A program made the position numbers and the translations under genes. The notes beneath the pieces were generated by a model that searched no databases, had not been told where the DNA came from, and saw nothing but the letters and a program-made list of their open reading frames with translations. Shown piece by piece: positions 6,866-27,827 of a stretch of 27,827 nucleotides of DNA. Each line of letters starts with the position of its first letter. Within the stretch, counting starts at the first letter, position 1. This DNA is from Nanobdellati archaeon (GTDB taxonomy: Archaea; EX4484-52; WAPT01), in assembly GCA_015520605.1 (NCBI GenBank), contig WAPT01000026.1, forward strand, positions 1 through 27,827, given 5' to 3'.

Positions 6866-6942
6866 TGGAGCGGGGGCCGGGATTCGAACCCGGGTAAATG
6901 GGATCTGCAGTCCCACGCCATACCAGGCTAGGCGACCCCCGC
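6866..6942 (-). tRNA. tRNA-Cys (GCA), CCA encoded
   Basis: Reverse complement folds as a cloverleaf: GCGGGGG/CCCCCGC acceptor, TGGGA-CTGCAGA-TCCCA anticodon arm, CCGGG-TTCGAAT-CCCGG T arm, U73 discriminator, CCA. Confidence 0.97.
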
Positions 6943-15571: not shown

Positions 15572-16855
15572 ATGCCCGAAAACAGGTTTCAGCCACCAAA
15601 AGGAATGAGGGATATCTATCCGGAAGAGATGGCTGCAAGACAGGCTATCTTCTCTAAAATTCGGGAGATAATGAAGCTTTATTCTTTCAGAGAGGTTGAG
15701 CCGACCAAAATAGAACATTTTGAGACTCTCGCTGCCAAGTCGGGCGAGGAGATAGAAAAGGAAATATATACATTTGAGGATAAAGCCGGCAGAAAGCTCG
15801 GGTTGAGGTTTGATCTTACAGTCGGTATGGCAAGAATGGTTGCAAGCTCCGCCTATCCATTGCCTGTAAGATGGTTTTGCATAGCAGACATGTTCAGGTA
15901 TGAAGCACCGCAAAAGGGCAGGTACAGAGCGTTCTGGCAATGGGATGCTGAAATTTTTGGCTCTTCCAGCATTTTCGCTGATGCTGAATGCATAGCTCTT
16001 GGTTGTGATGCAATGAGCGCTTTCGACATAGAATTTGAGGTGAGGATGAGCAACAGGAAGCTTGTGGAAGGGATAATGAGAGTGGTGGGTATCCCTAAGA
16101 ACAAAATACTTGATGCTTTCAGGTGTGTGGATAAGTTACAGAAAATTGGAAAGGAAAACGTGCTCATCGAGATGGAAAAACGGGGGATAGATCCCGAAAA
16201 AGGAGAGAAAGTGCTTGATGCTCTCAAAATAAGTGGCACGTACAAGGATGTTGAGGAAAGCGTGAAGAGTCTTAACAACTCCGATGACCCCCTAATTCCC
16301 GAAGCTCTCAAAGAGATGTGCATGCTCGATAAAGCTCTGAAGTTCTTTGGTGTTGATAAGCACTGCACCTTCGATCTTTCCATCGTGCGGGGGCTTGACT
16401 ACTACACAGGCATAGTGTTTGAAGGCTACGCCACTAACAGAAAGGTGCTTGGAAGCGCGCTGTTTGGTGGCGGAAGATATGATGGACTTGTTGGGCGGTA
16501 TGGTAAGGATGTGCCTGCGGTTGGACTGGCTGGCGGTGTTGAAAGGCTCATGGAAGTTTTAAAAGCTGAGGGTAAGTTACCATCAGTAACCACAGCCCCG
16601 GACTACTTTGTAGCTTTCGTGACTCCTGAATTGATGGATGTGTGTGCATCCATAGCCTCAAAGCTCAGAAAAAGGGGTATGGCAGCAGAGATGGAACTCA
16701 TGGACAGGAGCCTCTCCAAACAGTTAAAGCGCGCATCACGCATAGGCGCAAAGAAGGTGATAATAGTAGGTCCAAAGGAGCTTGAGAAGGACAAGGTCAA
16801 AGTGAGAGATATGGAGAGCGGTGAGGAAGTGCTTGTGGAGGTGAATAACCTGTGA
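15572..16855 (+). CDS. hisS: Histidine--tRNA ligase
   Basis: PKGMRD, LRFDLT, FRYEAPQKGRYRAFWQ, RGLDYYTG, GGGRYD and the C-terminal anticodon-binding domain. Confidence 0.98.
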   Translation: MPENRFQPPKGMRDIYPEEMAARQAIFSKIREIMKLYSFREVEPTKIEHFETLAAKSGEEIEKEIYTFEDKAGRKLGLRFDLTVGMARMVASSAYPLPVRWFCIADMFRYEAPQKGRYRAFWQWDAEIFGSSSIFADAECIALGCDAMSAFDIEFEVRMSNRKLVEGIMRVVGIPKNKILDAFRCVDKLQKIGKENVLIEMEKRGIDPEKGEKVLDALKISGTYKDVEESVKSLNNSDDPLIPEALKEMCMLDKALKFFGVDKHCTFDLSIVRGLDYYTGIVFEGYATNRKVLGSALFGGGRYDGLVGRYGKDVPAVGLAGGVERLMEVLKAEGKLPSVTTAPDYFVAFVTPELMDVCASIASKLRKRGMAAEMELMDRSLSKQLKRASRIGAKKVIIVGPKELEKDKVKVRDMESGEEVLVEVNNL

Positions 16856-17775
16856 TAACCATCTACTTTCTTGGCACAAGTGCAGGTATTCCTACAAAAG
16901 AGCGCAACCTTCCCGCCATTCTTCTGAAGTACAACGAAGACAGGATTCTGTTCGACTGTGGAGAGGGTACACAGAGGCAGTTGATGATCAAAAACCTGAA
17001 GTTCATGAGGATCAAGGCGATATTCATAACACACTGGCACGCTGATCACTTTGCTGGGCTTCCCGGCTTGATTCAGACTATGGCGATGGAGGGAAGAAAA
17101 AAGCCACTCTACATTTATGGTCCGGAAGGTACTGTGGAATTTGTTGAAAAGCTCCTTAGCATAGGTTATTTTGAGAGAGAATTTCCCATCATCGCTGAAG
17201 ATCTGAAACCCGGCGATAGGGTTGAGTTCAAGGACTACTACGTTGAAGCATTCAAAACATACCACGGAATCCCATCGCTCGGATACATTTTTCAGGAAAG
17301 AGATAAACTAAAGGCGAACATGGAAAAGGCAAGAAAGTTCGGACTGATATCCGGCCCGCTGATAGGTAAGCTAAAAAAAGGAGAAGAGATCGTGTACAAA
17401 GGGCACAGGATAAAGCCAGAAGATATCGTGGAAGTTGTGAAGGGTAAGAAGATCGTTTACACAGGCGATACAGGCTACAGAAAATCTCTTTTGAAGCCAT
17501 GCAAAGATGCTGATGTTCTGATCTGTGACAGCACGTTTTGCTCGGATTTTGAGGAGAGAGCGCACACATTCTATCACATGACCTCAAAACAGGCTGCGAT
17601 GCTTGCTAAGGAAGCCAATGCAAAGCTTCTTATACTCACTCACATAAGCAGAAGGTATCAGAAGAATGATAAAGAAGATAGAAAGTACACAACCGAGAAG
17701 CTCTTGAGGGAATCGAATGAAATCTTTCCCAATACCATCCTTGCCGAGGATTTCATGGAATTAGATATCAAATGA
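16852..17775 (+). CDS. rnz: Ribonuclease Z (tRNA 3'-processing)
   Basis: FLGTSAGIPT, DCGEGTQRQ, HWHADH, exosite GPLIGKLKKG, YTGDT, THISRRY. GTGA overlap with hisS; SD GGAGGTGA upstream. Confidence 0.97.
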   Translation: MITIYFLGTSAGIPTKERNLPAILLKYNEDRILFDCGEGTQRQLMIKNLKFMRIKAIFITHWHADHFAGLPGLIQTMAMEGRKKPLYIYGPEGTVEFVEKLLSIGYFEREFPIIAEDLKPGDRVEFKDYYVEAFKTYHGIPSLGYIFQERDKLKANMEKARKFGLISGPLIGKLKKGEEIVYKGHRIKPEDIVEVVKGKKIVYTGDTGYRKSLLKPCKDADVLICDSTFCSDFEERAHTFYHMTSKQAAMLAKEANAKLLILTHISRRYQKNDKEDRKYTTEKLLRESNEIFPNTILAEDFMELDIK

Positions 17776-18062
17776 AACTGCGGCAGGGTAAAAAATATTG
17801 AATAAACATCAGTCCGATAGATGTTTTGAAGGAGATTATGTTGCTTTTCCTCGGTTCAGTCAAATTTAACTGCGCACACGAGTCAACGATTATGGGAATC
17901 CTTCAGTTGGTTACGGCTGCGCGTATCGGCTCGTAGAAAATATGCTCCCACCGCGATGCTGGTAGCTGAATTAATTTAAAATTTAAAAACAGCACCATTC
18001 TTTGTCCCATTATAATTACCTGAATACAGGTCATCGGTTCAAAAATCCCGGAGGTGGTGGAA

Positions 18063-18980
18063 ATGCTGCATGTCTTCGGCCACAAAAGCCCGGATACTGA
18101 TTCAATATGTTCCGCGATAGCTTACGCTTATCTTAAGAACCAGGTGGGTGAGGAGGCAAAAGCTTTTAGGTTAGGTGAAACCAACAACGAGACGAAGCTT
18201 GTGCTCGGAAGGTTTGAAATGGATGCCCCTCCTCTACTGAAAAGTGTCGCCGGCAAGGATGTTGTTCTTGTGGATCATAATGAGTTTGAACAGAGCGCTG
18301 ATGACATAGAGAAAGCAAACATAGTGGAAGTCATAGATCATCACAAAATTAAATTCAGCTGGGATAAGCCCATCTACATGCTTGTCATGCCGGTGGGGAG
18401 TACTGCCACCATCATAGCAAAGAAGTTCATATGGAAAGGTGTAAAGATACCACAAGAGATAGCTGGGATATTGCTCTCCGCTATACTTTCCGATACGGTC
18501 ATTTTCAAATCCCCAACCACCACAGAGGAGGACAGGGAAGTTGCGAGGGAGCTCGCCAAGATTGCCGAAATTGAGGACATTGAGGCGTGGGGTGTGGAGA
18601 TGTTCAAAGCAAAATCAGCGATAAGTGAGAAAAGCGCGAGAGAGATGATATACAATGATTACAAGACCTACGACTTCAGCGGCAGAAAAGTGCTCATAGG
18701 TCAACTCGAGGTGGTGGATGATGGCGAAGTCCTCAAAAGAAAGGAGGAAATTATGGAGGAGATGAAAAAAGTCAAAGAGGAAGAGGGTTTATTCGCTGTG
18801 CTTTTGCTCGTGACGGACATAATGAAGGAAGGTTCGACCGCATTGCTTGTAGCTGATGATGTCAAACCATTCGAGATGGCTTTCAATGTGAAGTTTGAGA
18901 ACGGACAGGCATGGCTTGTGGGGGTGATGTCACGAAAGAAGCAGGTCGTACCACCGTTAGAATGTGTGTTCAAAAATTGA
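18063..18980 (+). CDS. ppaC: Manganese-dependent inorganic pyrophosphatase (family II, DHH)
   Basis: GHKSPDTDS, LVDHNE, IDHH, SDT, SRKKQ. SD GGAGGTG at 18050-18056 favours ATG 18063. Confidence 0.97.
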   Translation: MLHVFGHKSPDTDSICSAIAYAYLKNQVGEEAKAFRLGETNNETKLVLGRFEMDAPPLLKSVAGKDVVLVDHNEFEQSADDIEKANIVEVIDHHKIKFSWDKPIYMLVMPVGSTATIIAKKFIWKGVKIPQEIAGILLSAILSDTVIFKSPTTTEEDREVARELAKIAEIEDIEAWGVEMFKAKSAISEKSAREMIYNDYKTYDFSGRKVLIGQLEVVDDGEVLKRKEEIMEEMKKVKEEEGLFAVLLLVTDIMKEGSTALLVADDVKPFEMAFNVKFENGQAWLVGVMSRKKQVVPPLECVFKN

Positions 18981-19166
18981 AAACTGCTAAAAGAGGCGAA
19001 AAGACTGTGCCGGAAAAGGGAAGAGAGGAAAAGAAAAACACATATGCTATGAGAATGACCGGCTTTTAAACGAGTCAGAAGCAACACCATTCAATAAATA
19101 CAATATCTCCAATATTCCGTAAACCCAAACGACAATAGGCTTTTCGATAAGGAGAAGGTGATTCAC

Positions 19167-19658
19167 GTGCAGAAACTCGTTCCCAGGAAGTGCTTTTTGA
19201 CCAGAGGTGTTGGCGTGCATGAGAAAAGACTCGTGTCCTTTGAGCTTGCCCTGAGAGATGCGGGGATCGAGAGATTCAACCTCGTGCCAGTATCGAGCAT
19301 AATTCCCTGGGGATGTGAGATTGTGAGCAGAGAAGAAGGCCTTGAGGAACTTAACGATGGTGAGGTCGTGTTTGTTGTCATGGCACGGAAGGAAAGCGAT
19401 AAAAACGAAGAGATAGCAAGTGCCGTTGGTTATGCACGGCCCAGAGCAGAAGAAAAACACGGGTACATCGCCGAGTACTCCGCGAGTAACTGTGATGCTG
19501 AAACGGCCAAGAGAGAAGCGGTTGATATGGCCGTGAAAATGCTGAAGGCTAAACTTTCGGATGTAAAGGATCTTGAGATGGGTGGCATGGCCGTAAGCGC
19601 AAAAGCAAGGGAAGGAGAATACACCACGGTTATCGCTGTAGCTGTGTTTGTAATTTGA
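19167..19658 (+). CDS. pdaD: Pyruvoyl-dependent arginine decarboxylase
   Basis: SFELALRDAGIERFNLVPVSSIIP with the Ser-Ser autocleavage site, and GYIAEY. AGGTGA SD suggests GTG 19167 (track start 19158). Confidence 0.95.
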   Translation: MQKLVPRKCFLTRGVGVHEKRLVSFELALRDAGIERFNLVPVSSIIPWGCEIVSREEGLEELNDGEVVFVVMARKESDKNEEIASAVGYARPRAEEKHGYIAEYSASNCDAETAKREAVDMAVKMLKAKLSDVKDLEMGGMAVSAKAREGEYTTVIAVAVFVI

Positions 19659-19752: not shown

Positions 19753-19905
19753 GCCGAGGTAGCTCAGCTGGTTAGAGCGCCAGACTCATAAGCCGTGTGC
19801 TGGCTTGTGAGTGATGAGTTTGCCGAGTTATGAGGCGGCGATGATTTTGTGTTACGGCGCTGAGAAATCTGGAGGTCGGGGGTTCGAATCCCCCCCTCGG
19901 CACCA
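19753..19905 (+). tRNA. tRNA-Met (CAT), elongator type, with 76-nt intron at 37/38 (19791-19866); CCA encoded
   Basis: GCCGAGG/CCTCGGC acceptor, CCAGA/TCTGG anticodon stem, CT-CAT-A loop, GGGGG-TTCGAAT-CCCCC T arm. Canonical bulge-helix-bulge: TAA bulge, CTCA/TGAG helix, AAA bulge. Lacks initiator A1:U72 and the three G:C pairs. Confidence 0.93.
19811..19863 (+). ncRNA. Putative box C/D guide RNA within the tRNA-Met intron
   Basis: C GTGATGA 19811-17, D' ATGA 19830-33, C' GCGATGA 19838-44, D CTGA 19860-63, with 12-nt and 15-nt guide spacers. Confidence 0.7.
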
Positions 19906-19909
19906 TAAT

Positions 19910-21073
19910 TTAGATGGTGGTCTTTTCGAAGAATTCTTGTATAGTTTTCTCAATGATTTCAACGAGGGCCTCTAAATCCTTTTTAACATAGCTCATTTCA
20001 AGTCTGATCTTTCTGTTCTCGTCTTTCAGAACTTCCATTTCATGTTTGAGCCACACCATTTCGCTTTTAATTCCCTCGGCGATCTTCTTCTTGATTTCCT
20101 CTCTGCTCTTCATTTCATCGGTGCTCAGCTTCTTCTCGAGATTCCTGATGTATGCTTCCATGTCCCTGATCTTTTCCTCCACGTCGCCTATCTCCGCTTT
20201 CAGACTCTCCTCCCTGGTCAGCCTATCCTTCTCGAGCTTCTTCAGCCTTTCTTCAGAATCTTTAACCTCGCTGACGACTTTTTCGAGACCTTTTAAGTTG
20301 TTTCTCAACCCATTGAATTCCTTCTTAAGCTTTTCGATTTCATTCTTTATTTTTCTTCCCTTCTTAATTTCATTATACACAACGGATATCTCTTTTAGTT
20401 TTTTCTCCGCCTCCGCTATGATGTCACTCAATGTCCCGATCTTCTTCTTAAAATCATTCATAATCTTGTCGAGTTCTTCCTTTCTGACAACCCCTTTCAT
20501 CTCAATCTCGATTCTCTCAACAGACTCTCTGAGCTCTTCGACCTGAGAACCCAGAGTTTTGACCTCTTTCTTGACCTCAAGAAAATCTCTGTACCTTCGA
20601 TCTATCTCCTCCAGCACGCTCATACTCTTTTCGGCGTTTATCTTGGTCGAAGCTTCCAGTTTTTTGAGCACATCTATGTTCTCTTTCATCTCCTCATAAA
20701 GATCCTTAACGACCTTCAGGCCTTTAAACTCAAGCAGGGTGCCGCGCAGATCTTTGATCTCATTCGCAAGCTTTTTTATCATGTTTTCATTTTTCTCGAT
20801 CATTTCTTTCAGCAGAGATACCTTATCCTCGAACGTACCGATTTTATTAAGTATCTTTTCGGGTTTAATCTCTTTGGTTATTGTTTCCATTTTTTCATAT
20901 GATGCCTTCATTTCAGCGAGGCTCCTCTCATTTTCAACAAACATTCCTCTCAGTTCACCTATTTCCTCCCTAATCTCACTTACCATATCCGTAAGGCTTT
21001 TCCTAACTTCGTTCAAAGCTTCGACCTTGGCTTCAAGTTCCTCCACCTTTACTATAAGTTCCGCTTCAGGCAT
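19910..21073 (-). CDS. Long coiled-coil protein
   Basis: 387 aa of near-continuous E/K-rich heptads with no TM segment or Walker motif. Start overlaps the stop of the giant ATPase gene by 8 nt. Confidence 0.85.
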   Translation of the reverse strand: MPEAELIVKVEELEAKVEALNEVRKSLTDMVSEIREEIGELRGMFVENERSLAEMKASYEKMETITKEIKPEKILNKIGTFEDKVSLLKEMIEKNENMIKKLANEIKDLRGTLLEFKGLKVVKDLYEEMKENIDVLKKLEASTKINAEKSMSVLEEIDRRYRDFLEVKKEVKTLGSQVEELRESVERIEIEMKGVVRKEELDKIMNDFKKKIGTLSDIIAEAEKKLKEISVVYNEIKKGRKIKNEIEKLKKEFNGLRNNLKGLEKVVSEVKDSEERLKKLEKDRLTREESLKAEIGDVEEKIRDMEAYIRNLEKKLSTDEMKSREEIKKKIAEGIKSEMVWLKHEMEVLKDENRKIRLEMSYVKKDLEALVEIIEKTIQEFFEKTTI

Positions 21074-24000
21074 GTTCCTCCACCATGCTCAAGGCATTCT
21101 TTAGTTTCTCAATCCTTTCCTTCAGCTTTCTGAGTTCCTTAATATTATTTTCTAACTTTGCCATTTTTATTTTTGGTTCTAATGTCTCGAGTTCCATCTC
21201 TATATCAAAGACGTCAATGTTTCTTGCTTTAAGGTCTGTTATTTTATCCTTCATTTCTTCGTACAGGTTTGAGAGGTATGTTGCAAGCTCTTCAGCCGTT
21301 TCAGTCCTGGCCTTCCCTATGAATTTCTCGAGTTCTTCGGCGCTTATTCTTTCTTTTTTCAGAGCCTTAAGGTTTATTCCGTATCTTTTTGCTTTTTCTA
21401 CAGCGTTCTTTTCCAGCGAGCTCAGGTAGATATCCACCACCTCAAATTTGCCCTGAGCGAGTTTCGAATCGGCAAGCTTGAGTTCCGTTTCGAGCTCGAA
21501 AACATCTATGCCCTTGGCTTTCATTACCTTTACAAGTTTCCTTATCCTCTCAAGCTTTTTATCATAAGCCACATACTTGTCAAGTTCAGCGTCACTCAGT
21601 CTTGTGACCTGATGGAGGAGTGGTCTGAACTCTATGAAGTAAGGCCTTCCTCTGTTGTATTCGCTGAACACGAGCATCCCCATACCGACTCCAGCTTTAA
21701 CCACGTTGGAAACATAAATATCACCGTATTTTAATCTTATCCTCTCGAGGTCGTTCTCGTACCTCGTTCTGAACTGTATCTCCATGCCGATGTTTGCTCT
21801 TATCTCTCCCACAAAATCGCTCAACACCTGACTTATCAAAATAAGACCTAAACCCCACTTCCTGAATTCCCTCGTTGCTTTTTCTATTGCAAGGAAGCCC
21901 TTCCCCGATCCTCCGAATTTCGGTAGCAATCTGTGTACCTCATCAAAAATCAGAACCGTATTTAGTTTATGACTTTCTTCCAGCCTCGCTTCAAAAATGC
22001 TCCTTATGAAGTTAACCACGAAGTCTTCGATTTCCTTGTGGCTCAATCTGTTAATAACAAAAACGGTTATTCTTCCTCTCTGGGAGAGAAGATCTTTTAT
22101 GTCAATTTTCTCATAAGCATCCTCCACCACCTTGATTTTTCCCGGGAAACCTCTTGCATCCTCTTTCTTCATTCCAAATTCCTTGTATTTCTTGAGCATG
22201 AAATCTTCTTTGCACTTTCTCAGGAATCCCGTCCACTGGGCGGTTGGATCAAAAACTATAACATTCTTGCCTTTGAGTAATAGCTCTTCAGCTATTACCA
22301 TAGCTGAAACCGTCTTACCAGATCCTGTAGCTCCTGCTACCATGACATGGGTTGATAGATGATCTGGGTGGATGAATGCTCTTATACCTTTGTTTGCGAT
22401 GTTTCCAATGAAAAGGGTTGATGTCGTTGGTCTCGGTATGTGATGTATGTCGACAGGTATGTCGAGCTTCTTCTTTGTTCTCTGTTTTCTCCTCTGCCAG
22501 TACAAGTAATATAATCCAGCCATAATTCCGAATGTTTGAAGGAGAACAATAAGTTCCTTGACCTTCAGCCCCAGAAGTGTTTTTCTCTCCAGAAACGGTA
22601 CCCCGACAGTTACATATTGGAGTGCCGTTGCCTTAAGTGGATATGATGCTGAAATGTATTCAGCTGTCGCTCTGACAATATATCTCTTTTTCTCTATGTT
22701 CTTTGGGATTTGTAGGGCCAATATCTTTGTCAGGCTTGTTTCAACGGCCATTGTTTCCCTTACAGCAGTGATCGTTTTAAGGGTGTCGGGGTCAACAAGC
22801 GCTATAGTCACGTTTGTGTCCACTCTATTAGTTTTACCGAGATTAAATAGTTCAACCTGAACCTTCAGCCTGTCCCCTGGGTCAACTGAACTCTGCAGAA
22901 GATTTATCTTCATATCCATCAGCTCTTCCGGTTTGGGTAGGACTTTAACGGTTATGGGTATCGCTGTGCTCTGGTTTTCTCCAAAAATCCTCATAACGCC
23001 GGAGTATGTCTTTGATCCTGCATTCTTTGGAATATCGAAAATCAGTATGAAAGCTCCTTCGCTTTTTGGATCCACAGTTATGGTGCTCTGATAAATTCGA
23101 GATATAAGCGCGATATCTCCGTATACTGTAGCTGAAAACTCCGCATCTCTGTCGAGCATGTTAAAAAGATACACATTCTTCATGACCTTCTCTCCGGGGT
23201 AGGTTGTGATATCTATTTCCTGTGTTCTGACCATAAAATTGGACTTGCCCAGCCTCTCAACTATTTTATTCACGAGCTCATCTTCGTTTATTTTCTGTAC
23301 AAAAGTACCACCGCCACCTCCAGAACCCCCGACTCTGGTCGAAATAGGCGCAGGACAATCGGCGGGACATGTCTTGTAATTCTCGCCCGCATCACACACC
23401 CCATTGCCACATGTTCCGCAGTCTTGGGGGCAGTTATAAGGACTTTCTCCATACTCACACACACCGTTCCCGCATACAGCATAGGTTTCCGATTCTTCCG
23501 GTTCACCAAGGACGAGCAACGGGTCTGAATCATTAAGGGTTACAATCACTCTGGCTTTTCTATAATCGTAATGCGGTAGTATACTTGTGAAATTTGAGTA
23601 ACATATACCATTGCTAACAGAATAGTTTGAGCACTTATAAACCATCAAATGGGAAAGATCCGAAATCTCATCAAGGTACGGTAGGACGTTGAAAATCACA
23701 GTCATATTTTTGAAAGGCGCACTGATGGAATACATCAGAGCTCTGTGTTTGATGCGCACACCGCTCATCGGAATGAGTTTCGGATTGAGCTCACTGAAAG
23801 ACATCAAGGTGTTGTTTTTGGAAATGTTTATATTTTTCACAGAGATATTCTCTAATCCTATATATACGTCGAGATCGTAAGGGCCGGTCCTCATATTCAC
23901 GATTTTATTACCCGTTACATTTATCCTATTGAAAACATAGTTCGTATTGCTCTTTTTGAAAGAAACATTCATGGAGGTGGAGGTGCTCAGGTTGACATTC

Positions 24001-27000
24001 ACTCCCGGAGTATATCTAACCCATACGGTTTTTGAGACGCTGTTTTCGGTGGAGTCCCACACTGTGTAGGTCAGCTTGTAATCGCCGTTAACCGTGAGAT
24101 TGAAGCTGGCATTCCAGCTTCCGGAAGCAGGATCCCATCCGAACATCACCGTGGTGTTATGGAGCAGAGGATCAATGATGGTTGCCTGCACGCTCGTTAC
24201 GTTGACATTGTCATCCGCAAAAACTTGCATGTTGAGGACACCATTTTTTATTGTTTCATTCGTGCTGATTATCTCCGGAGGTGTTATGTCCCGGTAATAA
24301 AGGGCATTATCCTGAAGCGCCCTTACGGTGAACCCGTAGGTGTGATAGGTGCCAACAACGCTCAAATCGTGCCACCTCCCGTCCTTCAGGGGTGGTAGGG
24401 TGCACGTCATGATCCAGTACCCTCCCTGATAGGTGTAATTACATGGACATTCCTCGGAGTCCGCGTAAGCGTGAAGGGTAACGTTGTTATCGATAGGTGT
24501 ATCCGCAAGAGTGAAGGATACGTTGATCGTTATCGTGTCGTTCGCGAGCAGGTCTGTGTACGGATTTGATGTTGTGGGCGAGAGAATGTTCAGTCTCGCC
24601 TCATAGACGTCCATTGTGATGGGTATAATCATCAAGGAATTATAATCGATCTCCTGAATCGTGAGGTTGCCCTCGTAGTGGGAAGCTACGGGGATGTTGC
24701 CGTATTCGAGGAGCAGTTCCGTTTTCTCCTGTGGATCAAGCAGAGAGGAGGTCTGATTTAAGGAGAGCACCGTGCTGATGTTGCCCGCCAGCGAGTAGTA
24801 GAACTTGAGCTGTGTGTTACCGAGGTTGCTCACCAGCATGCTGAGATTTCCGCTGATGTTGGCAACAGCGGAGATCGATATGGAAGAGAGGTTCGTGGCC
24901 CATGCCGGGCTCTCCGGTACGGTAACCTGAAGCGATTTCTCAACACATGTAGTTTCGCTACATGCTCTTATGACCGGGAAATACGCACCGTATGCGAAGC
25001 CTGCGGGTAAGCTGATGACCACTGTGATATTAGAGGAGTTTTTAGGATAAAGGGAAGTGAGAGTACTGGGGACAAAGCTTATGTACGGACATATGTCCGG
25101 CTGGTATGCACACGCGAAACTTATGTTTTCGGCCGGGGCATTACCCACCGAACTAATGACGAACCAAGCATAACCTGTTGAGTTGTGCTCCACCACGACG
25201 GATTCGAGCATTTCCGATATGTTCAGCTCAACGGTGGGCGTGACGTTAATGTAGATGGAATCCGCAAAGACCTTGTCCAGCAATGCAGGGTTCGGATTGA
25301 CCCACTCGACGTAGGGCTTGATGATGTAGGTGGCCGGGGGTGTGCCTGCAGATATATTGATCAAAAGCAGACACGACTCAGTCTGGTTGGGAAGAAGCTG
25401 GGCGTAGTTGCACTTTGAAATGTTCCACGCGGTTCCGGCCGGCACATCCGCTGTTACGTTCACGTTGTAAGCATTCACATAACCTGTGTTGGTGATGTTG
25501 ACCTCAACGTACACAACCTTACCACGATAACTTGTTACATTTTCCACCTTCACATAAGTTTCGTTCACCGCTATGGCCATCGTTGTTGCGTCGAGAGCCT
25601 GGAACGTGAAGCCATACTGGTTGCACTTGTTCCCGGTGTCGCATGCTATGAGCAGTGCACGATAAGTGCCTCTCACAGCAGGTGAATAGACGCATGAATA
25701 CGTACCGTCGGGTATAGGATTGCCCTGTGCACAGATTATAGACTCGTTGGAGCCGTCAGGCAGGGTTATGTTGAGTTTTACAATGGCGAGTTCGTCCTGA
25801 TCGTCATCAAAGTAAGCGGTAACCACCTGATCCGTGTTTATCTCAACTATATCCTTGTAAGTGACATCCGAAATGAACGGGGGCATATCCTTGTAGTGGA
25901 GGTAAAGCTCAACGTTTCTCTGCTGTGGCACAGCCGTATCGTTGAAGATCGTTATGTTGGTCGCATAAGTTGCTGAAACGTAACTTCCTTCCTGATAAAG
26001 TGTCAGGTTTTTTGCTTCCTGAGGTGCTAAATACACATACGTGGGGTTGTAGGTTGCATTGCCCGCCTGCTTATTCAGAATCATAAGTGGTGGAACCTGC
26101 GTGGTCGGATTAGCATAACCGAGAATATCAAGGTAAGACACGGTGAAGTTGAGAGGCACATTTCCCGTGTTTCTCAATTCTATTAATCCAGCGGTTCCGT
26201 TCTGATTCAGAGGGAACGTGATGTTCAGAACGTTTGTTGAAGTTCCGTTGGGATAAAAGACTCTTATCGAGTATGTTGTGTTTACGGGTACGGTTACGTT
26301 GATGGGTATGACCTTCCTTCTCTCATCCAGTCTCCCGAGATTTGCGGTTATGTTTATCCATCCAGCATATGTCCCGGGCGGGAAACCCGCAGGAAGGGTT
26401 ATAGTTACCGCGGATTGCCCGCTTCCGCCCGGATAAATCACGTCAAAATAAGATGGTTGGATTGTTATGGAGGAGGCGGGCAGGTTTATCGGGGTGTAGT
26501 TGATCCATACACCGTAAAGTTCTGCGTTGCCGGTGTTGTTTATTACCATTATGTAGGTTTTCTGCGTGCCGTGTTCCATGGTGGTGGTTATGTTGTCTAT
26601 ATTGGTCGTGATCTGAGGGTTCCCGACAACGGTGATCACCTGCTGATTCGAGTAAACAAGTCTGGACGTTCCGTCGTTATCAATCCAGCTCATGTTGTAC
26701 ACCTGCTTGTAGGTGCCCGGAGGTGTTCCTGCAGGAATTGTCATGTTGAACGTTATGTTTATGGCCGTTTCCGGAGGTATGTCGGGGATGGAAGTTGTGT
26801 TGATGATGTTGAATGGACCGGAATATCTCCAGAGAGTTATGTTGTGCATGGTTGCTCTGCCGGTATTGTTTATGGTGATGTTGAACTGAACCGTCTTATT
26901 TTCCGTATTGGTAACGTTGTAAATCACCATATCTGGAGCAAAAGCTGTGGCGGATGTGCTGCTCTCCTCAAAATAGAACGATGTTACATCATCACGCGGG

Positions 27001-27827
27001 TAGTATAAAGCTGTTTCATTCTCTACATGAATCGTTATCGTTTTGTTTCCACCCTCCTGCTCGCAGCCGTACACCGCAGGGCCGAATGTGAAGTTTACGG
27101 TACAGTTTCCAAGGCCTGAGCACGTTTTTGTAATGCTTCCTACCCTCACAGTAAAGTTTCCGTAGAGTTGCTGAGCTGATGTCGCGTTGATGTAGTTGCC
27201 AACAGTGATATGGTACAGAGAGCACCCAGCAACGGTAACGAAATCCGGGACAAATATGTAAGTTTTTGTTAGGTTGGCAGGCCATCTAACCTTCAGAACT
27301 GTCTGGTTCTCTCCATAAATTTCCCGAGCATCCGTCAGATTGACTTTCAGAATGTAATCTCCCGCTTGAGATGGAGCCGTGAAGGTGTAGTTGTAGAAGC
27401 CGGAGGAGTTTGTTTGAGTTGTGTTCAGTAATTGTCCGTTCAGCCAGATTGAAATTGAATTGTTTGCTACCGGAGAATTATCAGGCTGTAGTAAAGCCTG
27501 GCCCTGGATTGTTATTGTCTGGTTTGGATTGACAAGGTATTTATCCAGGTTAAGTGAGACTGAAATGTTCTGAATGGCGAACCAGGTTTTTCTCGGGGGA
27601 ATTTCCTGGGTTATGGTTGATCCGTTGCTTAAGGTTGAGTTTGCATAGAAGGTTACGGTGTAGTTGCCGAGCATGTTGTTGAATTCTTTGGTTATGTTGA
27701 GGATTGTGTACCATAAACCTGTTTCTGATTTTGAGGTTGTGTTCTGCAGGAAGTATGTGTGGTTTGTTCCGTTTGGATCCGTGATGGTTATCCACACTTC
27801 GTCTATCGGGTTGTCTATGTTTCTGTA
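21066..27827 (-). CDS. Giant single-pass membrane protein: repeat-rich ectodomain + TM + HerA/FtsK-like (DUF87-type) ATPase + coiled coil; 5'-truncated
   Basis: Frame open to the window edge (>2250 aa). Repeated N-T-G-N beta-sandwich-like modules, CGNGVC repeats, Gly linker, TM 22497-22553, Walker A GATGSGKT 22311-22334, Walker B LIFDE 21939-21953, REFRKWGLGLILISQ. Confidence 0.9.
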   Translation of the reverse strand, partial: YRNIDNPIDEVWITITDPNGTNHTYFLQNTTSKSETGLWYTILNITKEFNNMLGNYTVTFYANSTLSNGSTITQEIPPRKTWFAIQNISVSLNLDKYLVNPNQTITIQGQALLQPDNSPVANNSISIWLNGQLLNTTQTNSSGFYNYTFTAPSQAGDYILKVNLTDAREIYGENQTVLKVRWPANLTKTYIFVPDFVTVAGCSLYHITVGNYINATSAQQLYGNFTVRVGSITKTCSGLGNCTVNFTFGPAVYGCEQEGGNKTITIHVENETALYYPRDDVTSFYFEESSTSATAFAPDMVIYNVTNTENKTVQFNITINNTGRATMHNITLWRYSGPFNIINTTSIPDIPPETAINITFNMTIPAGTPPGTYKQVYNMSWIDNDGTSRLVYSNQQVITVVGNPQITTNIDNITTTMEHGTQKTYIMVINNTGNAELYGVWINYTPINLPASSITIQPSYFDVIYPGGSGQSAVTITLPAGFPPGTYAGWINITANLGRLDERRKVIPINVTVPVNTTYSIRVFYPNGTSTNVLNITFPLNQNGTAGLIELRNTGNVPLNFTVSYLDILGYANPTTQVPPLMILNKQAGNATYNPTYVYLAPQEAKNLTLYQEGSYVSATYATNITIFNDTAVPQQRNVELYLHYKDMPPFISDVTYKDIVEINTDQVVTAYFDDDQDELAIVKLNITLPDGSNESIICAQGNPIPDGTYSCVYSPAVRGTYRALLIACDTGNKCNQYGFTFQALDATTMAIAVNETYVKVENVTSYRGKVVYVEVNITNTGYVNAYNVNVTADVPAGTAWNISKCNYAQLLPNQTESCLLLINISAGTPPATYIIKPYVEWVNPNPALLDKVFADSIYINVTPTVELNISEMLESVVVEHNSTGYAWFVISSVGNAPAENISFACAYQPDICPYISFVPSTLTSLYPKNSSNITVVISLPAGFAYGAYFPVIRACSETTCVEKSLQVTVPESPAWATNLSSISISAVANISGNLSMLVSNLGNTQLKFYYSLAGNISTVLSLNQTSSLLDPQEKTELLLEYGNIPVASHYEGNLTIQEIDYNSLMIIPITMDVYEARLNILSPTTSNPYTDLLANDTITINVSFTLADTPIDNNVTLHAYADSEECPCNYTYQGGYWIMTCTLPPLKDGRWHDLSVVGTYHTYGFTVRALQDNALYYRDITPPEIISTNETIKNGVLNMQVFADDNVNVTSVQATIIDPLLHNTTVMFGWDPASGSWNASFNLTVNGDYKLTYTVWDSTENSVSKTVWVRYTPGVNVNLSTSTSMNVSFKKSNTNYVFNRINVTGNKIVNMRTGPYDLDVYIGLENISVKNINISKNNTLMSFSELNPKLIPMSGVRIKHRALMYSISAPFKNMTVIFNVLPYLDEISDLSHLMVYKCSNYSVSNGICYSNFTSILPHYDYRKARVIVTLNDSDPLLVLGEPEESETYAVCGNGVCEYGESPYNCPQDCGTCGNGVCDAGENYKTCPADCPAPISTRVGGSGGGGGTFVQKINEDELVNKIVERLGKSNFMVRTQEIDITTYPGEKVMKNVYLFNMLDRDAEFSATVYGDIALISRIYQSTITVDPKSEGAFILIFDIPKNAGSKTYSGVMRIFGENQSTAIPITVKVLPKPEELMDMKINLLQSSVDPGDRLKVQVELFNLGKTNRVDTNVTIALVDPDTLKTITAVRETMAVETSLTKILALQIPKNIEKKRYIVRATAEYISASYPLKATALQYVTVGVPFLERKTLLGLKVKELIVLLQTFGIMAGLYYLYWQRRKQRTKKKLDIPVDIHHIPRPTTSTLFIGNIANKGIRAFIHPDHLSTHVMVAGATGSGKTVSAMVIAEELLLKGKNVIVFDPTAQWTGFLRKCKEDFMLKKYKEFGMKKEDARGFPGKIKVVEDAYEKIDIKDLLSQRGRITVFVINRLSHKEIEDFVVNFIRSIFEARLEESHKLNTVLIFDEVHRLLPKFGGSGKGFLAIEKATREFRKWGLGLILISQVLSDFVGEIRANIGMEIQFRTRYENDLERIRLKYGDIYVSNVVKAGVGMGMLVFSEYNRGRPYFIEFRPLLHQVTRLSDAELDKYVAYDKKLERIRKLVKVMKAKGIDVFELETELKLADSKLAQGKFEVVDIYLSSLEKNAVEKAKRYGINLKALKKERISAEELEKFIGKARTETAEELATYLSNLYEEMKDKITDLKARNIDVFDIEMELETLEPKIKMAKLENNIKELRKLKERIEKLKNALSMVEEHA
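23355..23474 (-). repeat. Tandem Cys-rich peptide repeat (2x CGNGVC-x8-CPxDC)
   Basis: CGNGVCEYGESPYNCPQDC-GT-CGNGVCDAGENYKTCPADC in the translation. Confidence 0.85.

Follow-up and report, generated by a model that had tools for sequence, protein, structure and literature searches.

The intron within the gene for elongator tRNA-Met in a small archaeal genome probably serves as a cis-acting guide for 2'-O-methylation of the wobble nucleotide C34 of its own precursor, using a fold that excludes the splicing fold, and in this genome the cis guide appears to be fused to a guide for 23S rRNA. The gene lies on a contig of 27,827 nt (WAPT01000026.1) from a Nanobdellati archaeon (assembly GCA_015520605.1), the full length of which is called the window below. 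The genome (G000) comprises 863 kb on 27 contigs and is 90.7% complete. An initial annotation of the window had noticed an antisense copy of the anticodon and 5' splice junction within the intron, and had proposed either a self-guiding precursor tRNA or a hairpin that acts as a splicing switch. The spacing of the boxes in relatives, covariation at base 31 and equivalent modules in the introns of tRNA-Leu(CAA) and tRNA-Trp support the idea of a self-guiding precursor at the level of sequence.

Anatomy of the tRNA-Met gene and its intron

The Rfam tRNA model matched positions 19753-19902 with 62.4 bits, and ARAGORN, when introns were allowed, reported tRNA-Met(cat) i(39,76), that is, a 76-nt intron starting at gene position 39. 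Without the intron option, ARAGORN missed the gene. C34 corresponds to position 19787, and the 5' splice site is located at 19790/19791. The features of the locus are compiled in Table 1.

Table 1. Features of the intron-containing tRNA-Met gene and of the RNA elements within it (positions in the window)
Feature	Position	Strand	Evidence
Elongator-type tRNA-Met(CAU) gene, CCA encoded	19753-19905	+	Rfam tRNA, 62.4 bits; ARAGORN with introns allowed
tRNA-Met exons	5' 19753-19790; 3' 19867-19905	+	Rfam tRNA, ARAGORN
76-nt intron at the canonical 37/38 position	19791-19866	+	ARAGORN i(39,76); BHB geometry read off the sequence
Target strand (tRNA nt 31-37 and first four intron bases)	19784-19794	+	Sequence; MFE folds
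5' BHB bulge	19789-19791	+	Sequence; BHB-constrained fold
Antisense (guide) element, G19809 opposite C34	19802-19812	+	Sequence; MFE folds; homologue in 30 of 31 phylum tRNA-Met genes
GUGAUGA, box C of the canonical C/D sRNA, overlapping the D'-type box	19811-19817	+	Sequence; Rfam sR11 alignment
AUGA, putative D'-type box of the cis guide	19814-19817	+	CUGA, AUGA or UUGA in relatives
12-nt D' guide complementary to 23S rRNA	19818-19829	+	LSU rRNA pairing in G001, G002 and G009; kept in G001 and L065
AUGA, box D' of the canonical sRNA	19830-19833	+	12-nt spacing from box C; AUGA in G001, GUGA in L065
3' strand of the linker hairpin, partner of 19818-24	19834-19839	+	Constrained fold; pairing-preserving changes in G001 and L065; helix covaries in 120 introns
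GAUGA, C'-type box (x-A-U-G-A)	19840-19844	+	Immediately follows the hairpin in all relatives read
15-nt spacer in the D-guide position	19845-19859	+	No target found
CUGA, box D of the canonical sRNA	19860-19863	+	Sequence
3' BHB bulge with the 3' splice site 19866/19867	19865-19867	+	Sequence; BHB-constrained fold

In the splicing fold, the bulge-helix-bulge (BHB), positions 19785-88 pair with 19861-64 in the central helix, which is flanked by the bulges 19789-91 and 19865-67, and the outer helix is formed by 19792-97 and 19853-58. Box D overlaps the UGAG at 19861-64, the 3' strand of the central helix, which by itself already accounts for most of its CUGA, and the 3' half of the 15-nt spacer (19853-58) provides one strand of the outer helix.

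The intron contains a second complement to the anticodon loop

The 11-nt complementarity described in the initial annotation was recovered in full. The sequences ACTCATAAGCC (19784-19794) and GGCTTGTGAGT (19802-19812) are antiparallel and paired at 11 of 11 positions, with T19789:G19807 as the sole G:U pair. The accompanying proposal about the register also proved correct: counting upstream from the ATGA at 19814-17 (G19813, position 1; T19812, 2; G19811, 3; A19810, 4; G19809, 5), the fifth base is the one that pairs with C34, and position 1, G19813, is unpaired. The antisense hairpin was present, and lengthened to 12 bp, in both minimum free energy (MFE) folds computed, one for the entire precursor (-65.1 kcal/mol, z -3.7) and one for the intron plus the anticodon arm (-31.4 kcal/mol).

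All canonical archaeal introns must pair once with nt 32-35 in the central helix of the BHB, and the antisense could in principle be a chance match or a by-product of this ordinary pairing between intron and anticodon. However, the 5'-proximal antisense is a second complement, additional to the BHB strand 19861-64. Moreover, when bases 5-76 of the intron in the window alone were subjected to 200,000 dinucleotide-preserving shuffles, a complement of 11 bp with at most one G:U was obtained in only 140 of them, and 363 of them yielded N-NTGA preceded by 8 bp of complementarity to nt 31-38. Together with the covarying conservation over at least 120 distinct introns described below, these results refute an origin by chance or as a by-product, to which we give practically no credence.

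The module is conserved in the phylum and in other archaeal lineages

The phylum was represented by a sample of 42 small genomes, all from one order, which was searched with a pattern taken from the 5' exon only. This yielded 33 matches in 30 of the 42 genomes; two matches were not tRNA genes, leaving 31 tRNA-Met genes. In 30 of the 31, the antisense, one nucleotide, NUGA, a hairpin and xAUGA follow one another as in the window. The common layout starts with a loop of 3-17 nt, followed by the antisense, which ends with UGAG-Y and pairs with nt 31-35 and usually with more. After a single unpaired base come NUGA, either a hairpin or a C-GNRA-G mini-hairpin, and x-AUGA, and an A/U-rich spacer leads to the 3' strand of the splicing helix. 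The sole exception is the tRNA-Met gene of G007, which is intron-less. Of the 12 genomes lacking a match to the exon pattern, one (G008) has a tRNA-Met gene that was missed by the pattern and also exhibits the module layout; the f8 genomes contain intron-less CAU tRNAs of uncertain identity. A search for a stand-alone anticodon guide in the genomes without the intron module retrieved coding-looking matches only, apart from the module of G008.

For a wider scan, a stricter pattern was applied to one genome per prokaryotic species. At least 120 stretches were matched, and at least 108 archaeal ones, including that of Nanoarchaeum equitans, passed a simple tRNA check. Among the 12 stretches that failed it, at least two are plainly not tRNA genes. 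The labels of the matches listed, as deposited, were Micrarchaeota, Woesearchaeota/Nanoarchaeota, Aenigmatarchaeota, Nanohaloarchaea, Parvarchaeota, Iainarchaeum, Hadarchaeota, Marsarchaeota and "uncultured Methanosarcinales". When 121 sampled genomes from the phylum of N. equitans were searched, the module pattern was found in 24 genomes and the reversed-pattern control in none, while the exon-only pattern was found in 49 of the same genomes but was noisier, with about twenty control matches.

The distance between the antisense and the D'-type box is identical in the relatives, in which this box is CUGA, AUGA or UUGA; among the matches listed, one of these three forms was present in 107 of 108 introns. 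In every intron read, the first pair is formed at guide position 2, which places C34 at position 5. An unpaired position 1 and pairing from position 2 agree with the solved structures of C/D RNPs. The length of the guide helix is variable. Position 36 is paired in 75% and position 37 in 80% of cases, and the helix is confined to the 5 bp of nt 31-35 in 32 of the 108 introns (matches listed), which is short for a C/D guide. At the other extreme, the helix of the window (11-12 bp) is the longest of the data set, and it is kept in G001, a genome of the same genus, where an A:U pair replaces the G:U pair.

Covariation fits a putative single kink-turn motif

Covariation in related introns was found at base 31. 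In 120 distinct aligned introns, base 31 and its partner form AU in 90 and GC in 30 introns and are unpaired in none. The pattern used to choose this set prescribes one portion of the motif, nt 32-35 with their partners, but sets no constraint on pair 31 or the linker; the set includes related sequences that are not independent. Within the phylum, G in place of A at nt 31 is matched by C in place of U in the partner. In the same 120 introns, the four pairs of the linker stem that adjoin the two boxes are paired in 92.9% of cases, and all four have changed on both sides. The covariation score was 0.312, compared with 0.099 in shuffles (0 of 500 reached 0.312) and 0.02-0.07 when the partners were slid. 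Three or more consecutive pairs between the ends of the linker were found in 76% of 126 distinct introns, compared with 5.5% of shuffled linkers. In these 126 introns, x of xAUGA is G in 73, A in 31, U in 22 and C in none, and x-AUGA is followed by U or C in 114.

According to standard kink-turn rules, these features fit a register in which NUGA supplies the strand without the bulge and the guide adjoins it on the 5' side, in the manner of a D' box. The linker hairpin would then form the canonical stem and x-A-U the three-base bulge. The GA after the bulge would pair with the GA of NUGA, and the next base, U or C, would lie opposite the U of NUGA; the distributions of x and of the following U/C match the L1 and 3b positions of the predicted kink-turn. 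By its sequence, the motif would thus be of the inner C'/D' type with an internal stem. A register in which NUGA contributes its GA to a pairing with the first GA of the 3' box was rejected, because it leaves no three-base bulge, with the linker stem abutting both boxes, and because the variable x would occupy the invariant 1b position. An inverted kink-turn with the NUGA strand bulged (k-junction) was also considered, and the second-GA register with the x-A-U bulge was kept instead.

An outer C/D pair is absent from most relatives, which exhibit one putative kink-turn motif and a half-mer architecture. In those introns, the 3' "CUGA" is accounted for by a C preceding UGAG, which is complementary to C32-A35 in the splicing helix; among the 126 introns, 26 have UAAG and 25 have UGAG at the site of box D. 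The half-mer architecture of most relatives counts against guiding, as half-mer C/D RNPs are weakly active in vitro.

Paralogous modules and the protein components in the same genome

ARAGORN predicted 29 tRNA genes in the genome under study, eight of which contain introns. The module was detected in three of the eight introns, namely those of tRNA-Met, tRNA-Leu(CAA) and tRNA-Trp(CCA), and was absent from the introns of tRNA-Lys(CUU), tRNA-Thr, tRNA-Tyr and tRNA-Ser. In the Leu(CAA) and Trp(CCA) introns, the antisense is retuned to the respective anticodon loop, with 8 bp in each case, and is followed by one base and AUGA, so that C34 is again fifth. Searches of the 42 phylum genomes retrieved the Leu pattern in 14 and the Trp pattern in 9 genomes, 7 of the latter looking genuine by eye, and reversed controls gave no match for either. 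A strict version of the Trp pattern had no match in five named genomes from other lineages. In Pyrococcus, tRNA-Met, tRNA-Leu(CAA) and tRNA-Trp are the tRNAs with a C/D-guided C34, as summarised in a review.

The proteins that such a module would need are encoded in the genome. The genes for fibrillarin (contig C3, 15413-16000) and Nop5 (C3, 16084-16689) lie side by side, and an L7Ae-family protein (C11, 12308-12583) and the splicing endonuclease EndA are also present. In 36 of the 42 genomes, fibrillarin scored above the threshold of its family, and the same count was obtained for Nop5.

A model for cis guidance and its competition with splicing

From the gene anatomy, conservation, covariation, paralogues and protein genes, we infer a model that involves kink-turn formation, protein binding, methylation of C34, a defined order of events and a switch between two folds. 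In the unspliced precursor, 19802-12 would fold onto nt 31-37 and the first intron bases, leaving G19813 unpaired. The AUGA at 19814-17 would act as a D'-type box and form tandem G.A pairs with the GA of x-AUGA at 19840-44, while the sequence between the boxes would close as a hairpin to provide the canonical stem of the kink-turn, with x-A-U as three-base bulge. L7Ae, Nop5 and fibrillarin may then bind to this single kink-turn and transfer a methyl group to the 2'-OH of C34, which lies opposite the fifth guide position. At this stage, the guide helix would hide the 5' splice site and compete with the 3' end of the intron for C32-A35. After refolding to the bulge-helix-bulge, EndA would cut and a ligase would complete the tRNA. 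Because the splice site is buried and C32-A35 are contested in the guide fold, refolding would be needed before EndA can act, and modification would come first and splicing second.

The mutual exclusivity of hairpin and BHB, the second proposal of the initial annotation, was borne out structurally. The guide helix takes the same positions 19785-88 as the central helix of the BHB and buries the 5' splice site, and constrained folding yielded -31.4 kcal/mol for the guide fold and -29.6 kcal/mol for the splicing fold. As these energies are close, the precursor RNA is plausibly bistable between the two folds in the folding model. This exclusivity does not conflict with guiding.

The same data could be read without any methylation of C34. 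The antisense helix and an L7Ae-bound kink-turn would then mask the anticodon and the 5' splice site as a structural switch or chaperone, and the effect would be a delay of splicing, or protection and stabilisation of the precursor and the excised intron. The exclusive folds of near-equal energy fit such a role, guide helices of down to 5 bp and the missing outer C/D pair of most relatives would be of little concern to it, and the fixed spacing could be equally well explained by kink-turn geometry without catalysis, since the three-base bulge accounts for it as well as the N+5 rule does. However, a mere switch does not explain why the module in this genome is confined to exactly the three C34 tRNAs that carry a C/D-guided Cm34 in other archaea, why pairing always starts from guide position 2 with C34 at 5, or why fibrillarin and Nop5 have been retained in most of these small genomes. 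We therefore regard a role restricted to switching as unlikely, and favour guidance of C34 methylation by the intron. The sequencing runs that contain the locus are all DNA runs, and a single RNA run was found to have a 0.04 share of the sampled words; four of the DNA runs showed tRNA exons from other organisms.

The intron of the window also contains a canonical C/D sRNA with a guide complementary to 23S rRNA

A canonical C/D sRNA carries box C (RUGAUGA) near its 5' end and box D (CUGA) near its 3' end. Positions 19811-19863 of the window exhibit the canonical box order and spacing, with box C at 19811-17, D' at 19830-33, C' at 19838-44 and D at 19860-63, and with spacers of 12 nt from C to D' and 15 nt from C' to D. 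The region aligned with the Rfam family sR11 (RF01150) with 28.3 bits (E=0.0013). Because this is below the gathering score of 39, the match is a lead and does not indicate membership, and no Rfam C/D family was matched at gathering thresholds.

The D' guide (19818-29) is complementary to the large subunit (LSU) rRNA at 12 of 12 positions (11 Watson-Crick pairs and one G:U) in G001 and G002, which belong to the same genus, and in G009. The matching site is located approximately 1,760 nt into the LSU rRNA gene, and a C is found at the fifth position. The LSU rRNA of G000 itself is absent from the assembly; the best match to the D' guide in G000 (C24:25166) is not rRNA. The guide is kept in G001 and at locus L065 and differs there only next to D'. 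No stand-alone copy of the 23S guide was found elsewhere in the phylum, and for the D spacer (19845-59) no convincing target was retrieved in G000 or in four LSU rRNA loci.

The initial annotation had called the same AUGA a part of box C and had considered this call to compete with the D-type reading. The box C call turned out to be right, whereas the competition did not: because the D' guide behind box C matches 23S rRNA at 12 of 12 positions, the two readings coexist and neither is wrong. A further claim concerned the heptamer TTATGAG (19828-34), which is present and is an exact complement of CTCATAA. Its core is box D' (19830-33), its counterparts are TAATGAG in G001 and TGGTGAG in L065, and the complementarity to the anticodon is thus not conserved. 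Judged by sequence, it is not a second anticodon antisense but comprises the last bases of the rRNA guide together with the D' box.

It might be asked whether the intron of the window is nothing but a trans-acting, sR11-like C/D sRNA for 23S rRNA, with the antisense as a terminal or tethering stem that remains from an ancestral module and has lost its guiding role. The canonical boxes with their 12-nt C-to-D' spacing, the Rfam alignment and the perfect rRNA complementarity would all be expected in this case, and canonical sRNAs bear no guide on the 5' side of box C, where the antisense is located. In addition, the window's AUGA is embedded in a perfect box C, and the C' partner is also needed by the D' box of the rRNA guide, so the cis reading requires a second, predicted fold. 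However, a leftover stem would hardly be the longest antisense of the data set, nor be kept in G001 with an exchange from G:U to A:U. Furthermore, the linker hairpin of the cis fold has been preserved. Positions 19834-39 are the D'-C' loop in the canonical sRNA fold; this flank differs in sequence among the window, G001 and L065, yet it always pairs back to the invariant 19818-24, the first seven bases of the D' guide, which double as the 5' strand of the linker hairpin. The window forms six such pairs, two of them G:U, with one bulge among them; there are six in G001 and seven in L065. This pairing is a requirement of the cis fold, and these three sequences provide it. Finally, the Leu and Trp introns of G000 contain the cis module but no rRNA guide. 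An exclusive role as rRNA guide is therefore improbable in our view, even more so than a mere switch.

Under the favoured reading, the module of this genus would be fused with a complete canonical C/D sRNA, and each GAUGA would offer one GA to each of the two folds. The cis fold would use the second GA of each GAUGA, whereas the canonical fold would use the first GA of each, with boxes D and D' as partners. The released intron would refold as a canonical C/D RNP and methylate 23S rRNA, probably acting from the excised state.

These considerations can be extended to a more far-reaching hypothesis, which we put forward tentatively and hold to be possible but distinctly less secure than cis guidance itself. 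A minimal guide with a single kink-turn, located within its substrate, may be an ancestral and widespread route to Cm34 on tRNA-Met, tRNA-Leu(CAA) and tRNA-Trp in DPANN archaea and Hadarchaeota. In this genus, it would have merged with an rRNA guide to yield a single bistable RNA, in which the GAUGA boxes are used twice, the second GA in cis in the precursor and the first GA in trans in the excised intron. One intron would thereby methylate both a tRNA and 23S rRNA and time its own splicing.

Comparison with known guide-bearing introns and guide RNAs

The described tRNA-Trp introns contain all four boxes and two guides. The box C/D RNA in the intron of pre-tRNA-Trp has been reported for Haloferax volcanii and Pyrococcus (Clouet-d'Orval 2001; Singh 2004; both as covered by reviews). 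As far as these accounts go, the intron of the window resembles it in that the guide resides in a 37/38 intron and base-pairs with both sides of the junction between exon and intron, nt 34 being among the paired bases, in that C34 is fifth upstream of a D'-type box, and in the competition with the BHB; the tRNA-Trp intron of G000 itself bears the same module as its tRNA-Met intron. In contrast to the published system as summarised there, the hosts here are tRNA-Met and tRNA-Leu(CAA), the guide for position 39 is absent and tRNA-Met has no 3'-junction antisense, and most relatives have only the predicted inner D'/C' kink-turn, with target and guide in one hairpin and separated by 3-10 nt.

For N. 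equitans, a stable RNA derived from the 66-nt intron of elongator tRNA-Met has been described (Randau 2012, Genome Biol 13:R63, PMC3491384). The main text of that article names no target for it and nowhere uses the words anticodon, wobble, C34 or cis. In our analysis, this gene (L124) contains an antisense of 8 bp to nt 31-38, one nucleotide, CUGA, a CCC-GAAA-GGG hairpin and GAUGA, and the host tRNA, intron position and order of the boxes are the same as in the window and the 126 introns. Unlike the N. equitans intron, that of the window is also host to a complete canonical sRNA that bears an rRNA guide.

For Cm34 of elongator tRNA-Met, separate guides have been described, namely sR-tMet of Haloferax (Joardar 2011), an sRNA of Pyrococcus and human SNORD97/SCARNA97. 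They share the target nucleotide and the enzyme system with the module, but they are independent genes that act in trans, whereas here the guide lies inside its own substrate. The Haloferax guide reportedly also requires the intron-containing precursor. Reviews up to 2024 present, in the sections devoted to the topic, the tRNA-Trp intron as the sole guide-bearing intron, with tRNA-Met served by separate sRNAs. A literature search, the scope of which excluded supplementary target tables, retrieved nothing beyond the tRNA-Trp intron, the trans guides and Randau 2012. The present analysis adds the paralogous modules that one and the same genome has for Leu(CAA) and Trp, the predicted kink-turn register, and the box-sharing fusion with a canonical rRNA guide.

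If the model is true, the intron is a guide for wobble modification, which would offer a reason for the persistence of the elongator tRNA-Met intron in archaea, and the tRNA-Trp intron would no longer be the single textbook case, as two more tRNAs and many lineages whose genomes are reduced would join it. The form with one kink-turn and a guide of 5-12 nt folded onto its target would be the smallest natural box C/D-type guide, and would represent a natural test of half-mer RNP function with guide and target in cis. It would also provide a simple system to study RNP assembly versus the splicing fold on one RNA.

Pyrococcus sR11 (Rfam RF01150) is similar to the sRNA of the window in the order and spacing of the boxes, and its D' guide is nearly identical in the Rfam alignment, whereas its D guide is unrelated and the copy in the window lies inside a tRNA intron. 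The composite of the window, if confirmed, would link cis guides in introns with free trans-acting sRNAs, and bear on the movement of guide RNAs into and out of introns.

Recurrence of the module in other tRNA introns

The module of the tRNA-Met intron was also found in the introns of a tRNA-Leu(CAA) gene and a tRNA-Trp(CCA) gene, both located on other contigs of the source genome. In both introns, a sequence antisense to the gene's own anticodon loop is followed by one nucleotide, AUGA, a hairpin, and GAUGA. The tRNA-Trp intron additionally contains a seven nucleotide antisense element to the 3' exon junction, with which position 39 is not found at the fifth guide position.

Variation among tRNA-Met genes of relatives

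Window 19861-19864 and the homologous positions in relatives form the 3' strand of the splicing helix. Among 126 distinct introns, this strand is UAAG in 26 cases and UGAG in 25. UAAG results in a C34.A mismatch in the bulge-helix-bulge, which might make the splicing fold weaker in comparison with the guide fold.

In the tRNA-Met orthologues L060 (from the same-genus genome G001), L045-L049, L051, L032, L035, and L036, the T-loop region holds a second intron, and two of these genes, L032 and L035, are additionally interrupted upstream of the D-arm. Several of these second-intron orthologues escape ARAGORN.

Genomic neighbourhood and other RNA genes

The RNase Z-like gene places a predicted tRNA-3'-processing enzyme 2 kb from the tRNA-Met gene. 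An LSU rRNA gene was not found in the source genome assembly. The CCA end is encoded in every tRNA gene read in this genome.

Features in the window and on other contigs of the source genome (G000)
Feature	Location	Strand	Remarks
tRNA-Leu(CAA) gene	G000:C10:14180-14319	-	outside window
tRNA-Trp(CCA) gene	G000:C16:49581-49714	-	outside window
tRNA-Cys(GCA) gene	window 6866-6942	-	without intron
RNase Z-like metallo-beta-lactamase	window 16852-17775	+	upstream of tRNA-Met gene
DHH/DHHA2 phosphoesterase	window 18054-18980	+	upstream of tRNA-Met gene
Pyruvoyl-dependent arginine decarboxylase	window 19158-19658	+	upstream of tRNA-Met gene
387-aa coiled-coil protein	window 19910-21073	-	adjoins 2243-aa open frame
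2243-aa open frame	window 21066-27797	-	CARDB and NPCBM-associated domains in first half; HerA/DUF87-type ATPase near C-terminus
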